The position numbers were made by a program, and so were the translations under genes. Positions 44,881-45,140 of a stretch of DNA of 64,000 nt are shown here, one piece after another (the first letter of the stretch is position 1; each line of letters begins with the position of its first letter). The stretch lies in the NCBI RefSeq assembly GCF_030013595.1, contig NZ_CP122768.1; one strand, 5' to 3'. Under the pieces are notes generated by a model. It ran no database searches. It was not told the origin of the DNA and saw nothing but the letters and a program-made list of their open reading frames with translations. Source of the stretch: Escherichia coli (lineage in GTDB: Bacteria; Pseudomonadota; Gammaproteobacteria; Enterobacterales; Enterobacteriaceae).

Positions 44881-45140
44881 CTGGTTGACACTTTCCGGCT
44901 TAAGACCTTAACAAATCTTAACATCGCAGGTTGACACACTTGACACTTTTTCGCGAAAAACCTTATCAAACCTTAGCATTTCTAAGCATGGCAACTTGAC
45001 ACTTTTCGCGATTTTTTCGGCTTTTTGACGTGGTAAATCTGGCGCAAAGCCAGTAACGGCGGGGTTTACAGCGAGGTTGACACTTTTTCGCGTTCAGAGT
45101 GTAAAGTGTCAACCTGGCAAGCTGCTCAACTTGACACTTT
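44881..45140. repeat. array of at least 6 TTGACAC(T)TTTTCGCG repeats
   Basis: copies at about 44883, 44929, 44938, 44995, 45075 and 45129, plus one inverted copy at 45103; irregular spacing. Confidence 0.7.

Follow-up and report, generated by a model that had tools for sequence, protein, structure and literature searches.

A repeat array beside a winged-helix gene in an Escherichia coli phage satellite: a candidate pac-type region with matches to phage small-terminase alleles

The 64,000-nucleotide stretch of DNA analysed here (the window) has an E. coli chromosomal backbone (ccmH, narP, an autotransporter, then yejM-like genes) and contains an island of ~10.2 kb, which extends from an imperfect copy of the tRNA-Pro 3' end (43974-43994) to tRNA-Pro(ggg) (54172-54248). 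A tyrosine-type integrase of 413 aa (Phage_integrase, Arm-DNA-bind_3) adjoins tRNA-Pro(ggg), and a 68 aa ORF beside int (51987-52193, minus strand) is AlpA (Phage_AlpA, 33.3 bits against a cutoff of 21). The minus-strand order runs from integrase and AlpA through DUF4222, an AAA_25 primase/helicase-like protein (a phrog_2850 match), iterons, and ProQ/FinO and PerC; then follow proteins of 197 and 217 aa, a 175 aa protein, the repeat array, and a 76 aa ORF. The 197 and 217 aa proteins jointly match a phage head-module protein (DUF2213, phrog_6216); family searches of the island found no lysis, tail or other structural families, and neither a terS gene nor a ParA-like gene was found in it. Judged by its genes, the island is a PICI-type satellite, with the gene organisation of Gram-negative PICIs (PMC6092414). 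Members of this satellite family, which lacks both a cos site and a terminase gene, occur in at least 170 of 5426 complete E. coli genomes, and many other Enterobacterales carry it too.

The 217 aa DUF2213 protein is 54.5% identical to a head-module protein of Escherichia phage Rac-SA53, a phage with a Terminase_2 TerS and a Terminase_6N TerL. This likeness suggests that headful Terminase_2 phages of the Rac-SA53 type are the probable helper class. As terS of this type occurs in 890 of the 5426 complete E. coli genomes (16%), such helpers would be plentiful.

The 175 aa gene and the 76 aa ORF both lie on the minus strand, and the array spans the entire gap from the stop of the former (45147) to the ATG of the latter (44853), so that its true extent is 44856-45146. 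The features are as follows.

45147-45674, minus strand: 175 aa protein with an N-terminal winged helix, proposed satellite packaging adaptor for element A
45130-45141, minus strand: A1, gene strand AAAAGTGTCAAG
45075-45114, no strand assigned: inverted A pair, A3 (45075-45087) and A2 (45103-45114), GGTTGACACTTT-N16-AAAGTGTCAACC
45039-45062, minus strand: element C, single copy, gene strand CCGCCGTTACTGGCTTTGCGCCAG
44994-45007, minus strand: A4, GAAAAGTGTCAAGT, 8 nt upstream of B1
44952-44989, minus strand: B1, gene strand ATGCTTAGAAATGCTAAGGTTTGATAAGGTTTTTCGCG, three half-sites with a 10 bp period
44929-44951, minus strand: overlapping copies A5 (44938-44951) and A6 (44929-44939)
44897-44925, minus strand: B2, GATGTTAAGATTTGTTAAGGTCTTAAGCC
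44883-44896, minus strand: A7, GGAAAGTGTCAACC, 6 nt upstream of B3
44856-44880, minus strand: B3, CCCCTAAGATTTCCTAAGGTGTAAA
44623-44853, minus strand: 76 aa ORF, N-terminus related to the small ORF after EcCICFT073 rppA-cos

A preliminary description of this DNA had reported a repeat array beside a gene for an HTH protein, and the array is real: exact TTGACACTTT occurs six times in the 64 kb window, always within 44885-45140, and its three one-mismatch matches outside the array are scattered over the rest of the window. The clustering of repeats in the window exceeds chance. A repeat search of the window recovered the same families together with the inverted pair GGTTGACACTTT-N16-AAAGTGTCAACC, with 12-bp arms, at 45075-45114. 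Of the exact copies, one is inverted (45103-45112) and five are direct (plus-strand starts at 44885, 44940, 44996, 45077 and 45131). Degenerate copies are found at 44929-44939 (GGTTGACACAC), 45063-45073 (GGTTTACAGCG) and 45021-45034, and with them the repeats total nine or ten. Half-sites with a period of 10 bp (element B, below) lie between the A copies and had been overlooked. Among E. coli relatives the proximal 155 bp of the array are conserved and the distal part is mosaic; Rfam gave no family match across 43900-45300.

Element A (GGTTKACACTTT) is located after homologues of the 175 aa gene in at least five enterobacterial genera, and 77 sites define its core as (G/A)(G/C)TT(G/T)ACACTTT(T); the TTTTCGCG tail that had been included in the motif as first described falls outside this core. 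Of 20 loci (from Escherichia, Pantoea, Serratia, Enterobacter, Rouxiella, Raoultella, Lelliottia and Mangrovibacter), 18 contain the 8-mer TTGACACT, whose 49 occurrences within 600 bp 3' of the gene, vs. 5 in the remaining 182 kb, amount to a 137-fold enrichment. In a further set of 52 independent IMG/VR arrays, non-redundant, additional to the first loci and mostly on contigs of 9-20 kb, element A matches 183 times within the arrays but not once in the 2 kb upstream; it is also absent from 277 kb of phage terS loci. The usual plan in related loci is an inverted A pair right after the gene stop, followed by same-strand copies. Across relatives, the replication genes (D5_N/DUF5906, DUF927, AAA_25), the capsid-related genes and the downstream ORF all vary; despite these changing surroundings, an array with the common core always lies 3' of the gene in the homologue loci compared (Pantoea, Serratia, Enterobacter, Rouxiella, Raoultella, Lelliottia, Pseudocitrobacter and Mangrovibacter). 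Because an almost invariant HTH is paired with an invariant site amid variable surroundings, we infer that element A is bound by the winged-helix protein of 175 aa that the island encodes. Covariation of the HTH recognition helix with the G/T variant of element A was also sought and gave no signal, the helix being invariant.

The 175 aa protein combines a winged helix of the Xis/Nu1/Rpp fold with a variable C-terminal domain. An AlphaFold model (pLDDT 89.6) places a winged helix at residues 1-43, a disordered linker at 46-55, and an alpha/beta domain at 60-170; the C-terminal domain in the AF2 model is compact, has no long coiled-coil core, and is not a ring-forming helical oligomerisation domain. 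All homologues are annotated as hypothetical proteins and come from Enterobacterales; their residues 1-41 are almost invariant, and identity over the remainder falls to 33%.

The preliminary description had called this gene TerS-like, an assignment that we do not uphold: the terS family of PHROGs (phrog_57) covers residues 1-42 only, Pfam yields HTH_17 alone, below threshold, with no TerS family match, and profile-profile comparison with TerS of the Rac-SA53 type gives a probability of 0.3%. We rejected the protein as a small terminase on the lack of a TerS family match and of an oligomerisation core. The accompanying term "Nu1-like HTH" is sound at the level of fold, as a fold test detected an N-terminal winged helix of the TerS (Nu1) type, and does not discriminate between protein classes: the winged-helix fold is common to Xis, Cox and BldC, so the fold is no proof of a packaging role. 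BLASTP against RppA and Nu1 aligned 25-32 HTH residues and no more; for RppA, identity over the 25 aligned HTH residues is 40% (E 3e-4), and the shortness of this alignment led us to reject sequence homology to Rpp as well. A phmmer search of every PDB chain, RppC and Nu1 included, gave no match at E<=1. Among 50,697 phage genomes, tblastn of the protein found no match and blastn of the array nothing relevant; both are thus specific to satellites.

The same fold raises the possibility that the repeats serve transcription. According to this explanation, the 175 aa HTH protein would act like BldC, Cox or MerR regulators and control distal read-through or a promoter from an operator array: BldC, Cox and Xis-type regulators, which the fold fits, bind direct-repeat arrays, and the array lies upstream of a small ORF with whose ribosome-binding site B3 overlaps. 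TTGACA is the −35 consensus, and as the repeats contain it, the preliminary description had also considered multiple promoters. However, no repeat copy pairs with a −10 element at 16-18 bp, so that we rejected the multiple-promoter alternative, and the three promoter-like sites in 44500-45800 are all outside the array. The direct copies, moreover, point away from the island genes; the downstream ORF is not kept in islands that retain the gene and the array; and an operator leaves unexplained why one strand carries copies of several helper terS alleles (element B). We consider transcriptional control unlikely.

The position of the array points to packaging. In strain CFT073, the island EcCICFT073 has the same gene order, with RppA (144 aa, 27660-28094 of that locus) at the position of the 175 aa protein and an exact lambda cosN on both sides of rppA; its 279-bp gap between rppA and the small ORF contains three ATGTCCGGTT repeats, two direct and one inverted, and then cosN. 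A heterocomplex of Rpp and TerS has been shown experimentally to recognise the PICI cosB (PMC6739421). Given the shared slot between rppA and the small ORF, the array is located where the packaging site of a functional PICI lies. A lambda-type cos within the array was tried and rejected, local alignment giving an 11-mer only, and no cosN within 2 mismatches occurs in the island. The 76 aa ORF is absent from some related islands, and we therefore regard it as a marker of the distal border and not as a partner of the array. In related islands, a slot for defence cargo (SIR2, Abi, AAA ATPase) is found just downstream of the array.

Two further roles of repeated sites in mobile elements were weighed against this position. 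The repeats could be excision accessory sites on an att arm, with the 175 aa protein as recombination directionality factor; the array, however, is ~900 bp from the att copy at 43974-43994, compared with the distance of about 200 bp from the att core that we took as criterion, relatives have cargo genes between the array and the island end, and the island has its own AlpA beside int. Related islands, in addition, differ in integrase and att site and have the same array. We regard such a role as very improbable. Alternatively, the repeats could be iterons of a replication origin, or centromere-like partition sites, bound by the HTH protein. Yet a separate AT-rich iteron field (TCCTCACTTT, at least seven copies, 48440-48856) lies directly after the primase/helicase gene, where PICI origins lie, and is the likely island origin; the array, at 3.7 kb from the primase gene, does not change when the initiator family switches among AAA_25, D5_N/DUF5906 and DUF927. 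The lack of a ParA-like gene in the island speaks against partition, and origin and partition functions together appear equally improbable.

The elements between the A copies provide a link to helper phages. Element B, two or three 6-bp half-sites with a 10 bp period, is read on the gene strand and comes after most of the distal A copies; the A-to-B gap measures 6-9 nt (mode 8) for 24 of the 35 B elements compared across genera. In the window, the half-site strings are ATGCTTAGAAATGCTAAGGTTTGATAAGGTTT (44952-44989), GTTAAGATTTGTTAAGG (within 44897-44925) and CCTAAGATTTCCTAAGG (within 44856-44880). Perfect period-10 repeats are tenfold denser inside arrays than outside. When viral contigs were searched with the 17-mer GCTAAGAAATGCTAAGG, more than 120 matches were obtained, all inside small-terminase genes, where the 17-mer encodes LLRNAKV, a conserved helix of the Terminase_2 family; the same helix in Rac-SA53 terS reads GATAAGAAATGATAAGGTTTTTCG. 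These matches were considered as a sign that helper phages carry the array, and this was dropped, as all of them are in terS coding sequence and without element A.

To avoid sampling bias at the helix, we collected terS loci (n=80) with peptide patterns that lie in the C-terminal part of TerS. The alleles include the following.

ASRMLRNARV: ATGCTTAGAAATGCCAGGGTT
ACRLLRNAKV: CTGCTAAGAAATGCTAAGGTT
ASQLLRNPKV: CTCCTAAGAAATCCTAAGGTT
ASRLLRNVKV: CTGTTAAGAAATGTTAAGGTT
ASRLIRNDKV: CTGATAAGAAATGATAAGGTT
ASRLYRNVKV: CTGTATAGAAATGTTAAGGTT

Each B element of the window is close to a different allele. B1 has 1 mismatch to the LLRNAKV allele, and its third half-site with tail (GATAAGGTTTTTCG) is identical to Rac-SA53 terS (LIRNDKVFR); B2 is closest to LLRNVKV terS (GTTAAGAAATGTTAAGGTT), with 3 mismatches, two of them in the spacer; and B3 is closest to LLRNPKV terS (CCTAAGAAATCCTAAGGTT), also with 3 mismatches. 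B2 and B3 thus differ from the phage alleles at 3/19 bases, and have the spacer ATTT vs. AAAT in the phages. On both strands of the window, only three 19-mers are within 3 mismatches of any allele; all are in the array on the gene strand, their nearest alleles are A, V and P, one each, and the chance expectation for such 19-mers in the window is ~0.08 by our own estimate. Where B2 of the window reads GTTAAG..GTTAAG, a close E. coli relative shows the compensated pair ATTAAG..ATTAAG. TAAGGTG, the second half-site of B3, precedes the ATG of the 76 aa ORF by 7 nt and is a possible ribosome-binding site for it; some of the AAGG content of B3, which overlaps this Shine-Dalgarno-like sequence, may therefore serve translation.

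Matches in other satellites are exact. The satellite-array 22-25-mers ATGCTTAGAAATGCCAGGGTTTTT, TGCTAAGAAATGCTAAGGTTT, TCCTAAGAAATCCTAAGGTTT and TGTATAGAAATGTTAAGGTT are identical to four different terS alleles of the Rac-SA53 type; one Enterobacter array holds four different terS alleles as identities of 20-25 nt, and other arrays hold two or three. The 16-mers common to satellites and phage terS loci are restricted to the arrays, with identities of 16-25 nt. In the 52 IMG/VR arrays, 21 of 21 B matches are on the gene strand and none lies outside the arrays; 16 of these independent arrays have a B element within 2 mismatches of the seven alleles used, and the arrays beyond those have other period-10 repeats. 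The half-sites of a 163 aa subfamily are GTTGAG, CTTCAG and GTTATG, of which GTTGAG alone was traced to a terS allele. Coincidence, suggested by the variation of half-sites among satellites, was rejected when the 80-locus terS set turned out to hold the same allele variants verbatim.

These observations also bear on whether the array is non-functional debris, an ancestral terS remnant plus chance repeats: B resembles terS coding sequence, and a 48 aa ORF across B1 ends in MLRNAKV. Several alleles in tandem, a fixed spacing to A, compensated half-sites and confinement to one strand are not what a remnant would leave, and the array is conserved across genera where its flanks are not. We consider debris extremely improbable.

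Element C was followed in the same way. In Raoultella, Pantoea, Enterobacter and E. coli relatives, its core RTTRCTGG is conserved and trails an A copy by ~16 nt; the element could be a cleavage or host-factor site. As a link to helpers it was rejected: 112 of 120 viral-contig matches to CCGCCRTTACTGGMTT fit chance for a 16-mer, and the remaining 8 are satellites with arrays. A likeness to the Rac-SA53 terS segment AGTTACTTTCGC was dropped as well, as it is true of that allele only.

The matching terS segment bears marks of constraint at the level of DNA. The 63 distinct terS sequences compared spell R-N-x-K-V with the fixed codons AGA AAT nnn AAG GTT, at a third-position identity of 0.94-0.98 vs. 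~0.4-0.7 in neighbouring codons; the helix Arg codon is AGA in 94% of the sequences, whereas other invariant Arg positions are CGN. The two half-sites covary (GCTAAG/GCTAAG, CCTAAG/CCTAAG, GTTAAG/GTTAAG, GATAAG/GATAAG and GTTGAG/GTTGAG), and synonymous choices in the first follow amino-acid changes in the second: CCTAAG goes with Leu CTC and not CTG, GTTAAG with Leu TTA, and GATAAG with Ile ATA, and in the GTTGAG/GTTGAG pair Leu TTG goes with Glu GAG (LLRNVEV). On the basis of the codon constraint, the half-site covariation and the satellite copies, we place the TerS recognition part of the helper's own pac, provisionally, at the helix-coding segment of terS. pac sites inside terS are established for P22 and SPP1; we know of no earlier description of a helper signal that coincides and covaries with the codons of the TerS recognition helix. 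In a staphylococcal phage of the Terminase_2/Terminase_6N type, a 495-bp terS fragment carries the pac region and raises plasmid transduction by ~10^5 (PMC12323379).

We observe directly the repeat architecture, its linkage to a gene family, the synteny with rppA-cos, the identity between B and terS, and the DNA-level constraint on terS. Our preferred reading, to which we give a probability of roughly 0.6, is that the array is a pac-type region in which mimics of helper-TerS recognition sequences are paired with sites for a satellite adaptor; by this reading, A and B would be bound by the satellite protein and by helper TerS, respectively, and packaging would start at the array. The earlier suggestion of a packaging recognition site thus stands as the best-supported, still conditional, reading, with parts corrected, since the adjacent protein is not a TerS.

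A mechanism can be proposed on this basis. The B copies would show the helper TerS its own recognition sequence in several allele versions; as they match different helper terS alleles, the island could offer itself to several helper lineages. The 175 aa winged-helix protein would bind the A sites and, through contacts of its variable C-terminal domain with the helper terminase, nucleate the latter on island DNA. The fixed A-to-B spacing would allow the two to cooperate, such that terminase assembly on island concatemers is favoured over assembly on phage DNA, and the inverted A pair beside the gene may be a high-affinity nucleation site. B is oriented as in the terS coding sequence; should the satellite follow the phage in this respect, packaging would proceed from the array in the direction of 44600 and the cargo end.

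The same correspondence between B and terS would also suit a decoy, by which B copies, aided by the A-bound protein, merely titrate helper TerS and packaging does not start at the array; Rpp in EcCICFT073 has such a dual role. A packaged island, however, must have a start signal, and none besides the array was seen in the island (no cosN, no terS). Titration and a start site are not mutually exclusive, and a role as decoy only seems to us decidedly unlikely.

We put forward more tentatively, and at somewhat below even odds, a general form of the packaging reading: that in a widespread group of enterobacterial headful prophages with a Terminase_2 TerS, the recognition sequence of pac coincides with the DNA coding for the TerS recognition helix, a direct repeat with a 10 bp period, and that satellites keep a non-coding library of several of its alleles, each flanked by a site for an adaptor not characterised before. 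If so, half-sites would change together with the specificity residues, such that the reader and its site diversify in one step, and one island could use many helper lineages for its packaging and still out-compete every one of them.

For a satellite family that has neither cos nor terminase, the array and its partner protein provide a concrete candidate for the packaging route. To our knowledge, packaging of Gram-negative PICIs is known only for the lambda/phi80-dependent Rpp islands and for the capsid-forming cf-PICIs. If correct, our proposal would explain how one satellite uses several helper lineages, define a new family of packaging-adaptor proteins, and locate the pac signal of a common prophage group. 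Lying just upstream of the defence cargo slot, the array bears on the mobilisation of such genes, and a packaging signal that is short and portable would be of use in engineering transducing particles.

The array follows the same logic as Rpp-cosB of EcCICFT073 (PMC6092414, PMC6739421), here using separate DNA sites. It differs in several respects: homology to Rpp is limited to 25 HTH residues, and the C-terminal domain is alpha/beta here vs. a helical dimeriser in Rpp; lambda cosN/cosQ is lacking, and the helper is probably a headful Terminase_2 phage and not lambda/phi80; and the cis site is larger, with 7-9 adaptor sites plus helper-derived elements vs. three repeats in EcCICFT073. As in lambda cosB (R3-I1-R2-R1, bound by gpNu1), there are multiple short sites, one of them inverted, and a DNA-binding winged-helix fold; unlike cosB, the array has no adjacent cosN, more copies and irregular spacing, and the 175 aa protein lacks regions for TerS oligomerisation and TerL binding. 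Compared with Xis, Cox and BldC, which are single domains of 50-90 aa acting at att sites or promoters, the protein has an extra domain of 110 aa, and the array is far from att and without promoters.

Recognition DNA in or at terS is a feature shared with P22 gene 3, SPP1 pacL/pacC/pacR, staphylococcal Phietavirus (PMC12323379) and SaPI, whose common theme is repeated boxes for the TerS DNA-binding domain that satellites exploit; in contrast to the TerS/pac system of SaPI, the satellite described here has no terS of its own. The satellite PLE of Vibrio cholerae, with ICP1 as helper, mimics 14 bp of the helper pac and has its own packaging specifiers, GpsA/GpsB (PMC11417361). Both satellites have a short exact copy of helper packaging DNA (14 bp in PLE, 16-25 bp here) and encode proteins of their own for specificity, a role that we propose here for the adaptor. 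The two systems are unrelated in their elements, proteins and hosts; the single mimic of PLE corresponds to a single helper, whereas the arrays hold several helper-allele mimics paired with adaptor sites; and the helper pac was located independently for PLE, whereas we deduce it from sequence. Piracy of packaging by satellites is known; what is new here are the different parts that would carry it out and, in some arrays, the presence of several helper alleles.

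Our comparison of the loci suggests that the recognition site of the phage's own TerS is the very DNA that codes for the TerS recognition helix. In the terS genes of Rac-SA53-type phages, the proposed helper type, the recognition helix (R-N-x-K-V) has a frozen set of codons, AGA AAT nnn AAG GTT, and where the specificity residues change, the flanking 6-bp half-sites change with them by way of synonymous Leu codons (phage terS loci L280-L359; L279:2435-3463); it is these two observations together that point to the helix-coding DNA. A 48 aa ORF spans the array on the minus strand (44966-45112) and has the C-terminal end MLRNAKV; we rejected it as evidence of a gene and regard the ORF as a by-product of the copying of terS codons by element B, the 10-bp-period half-sites of the array. 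Exact GTTGAGAAATGTTGAGG occurs in a non-coding context, with stop codons just upstream, on four satellite-sized IMG/VR contigs of 12-15 kb (L452, L457, L470 and L472). Other satellites probably carry a mimic of the LLRNVEV type with the phage's own AAAT spacer.

Many arrays are closed by a conserved block, CTCTAAGTTACAGTTG, which follows repeats of the TTGTCAAAACTTGTCAC type (distal array ends of L362, L363 and L020-L026); this terminal block is absent from the window. The slot directly beyond the array holds defence-type cargo in related islands, i.e. an AAA ATPase, a SIR2 family protein and Abi_2 (L361:1-359, L363:1-367 and L007:7609-8598). In the window this slot contains the 76 aa ORF and is otherwise non-coding.

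Further along the island (45845-47156), a 217 aa protein (DUF2213) and a 197 aa protein match successive parts of a single phage head-module protein of 430-545 aa (phrog_6216), whose Rac-SA53 counterpart is a "TolA/nudix" CDS (54.5% identity to the 217 aa protein). Together they have the look of a scaffold- or protease-like protein of the helper, present in the satellite as a split copy that could interfere with capsid assembly. The AT-rich gap immediately 3′ of the AAA_25 primase/helicase gene (48440-48856) is probably the replication origin of the island: the iteron TCCTCACTTT(T) occurs there at least seven times, with copies on either strand.

The island ends in ~600 bp of non-coding DNA, where two copies of CCATATCGGCATCA[GC]GCCCA (44169 and 44280) are found together with one further feature:

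44369-44393, G/C-rich hairpin in the non-coding island end

Rfam returned no family match for this end (44150-44400); a similar stretch is present at the end of the known PICI EcCICFT073 in E. coli CFT073 (L013, ~28975-29010).

In EcCICFT073, the stretch from the rppA stop codon to the exact cosN downstream contains three copies of ATGTCCGGTT, two of them direct and the third inverted (L013:28163-28260). Published work states that the R elements of PICI cosB were not identified; these three copies are candidates for them.
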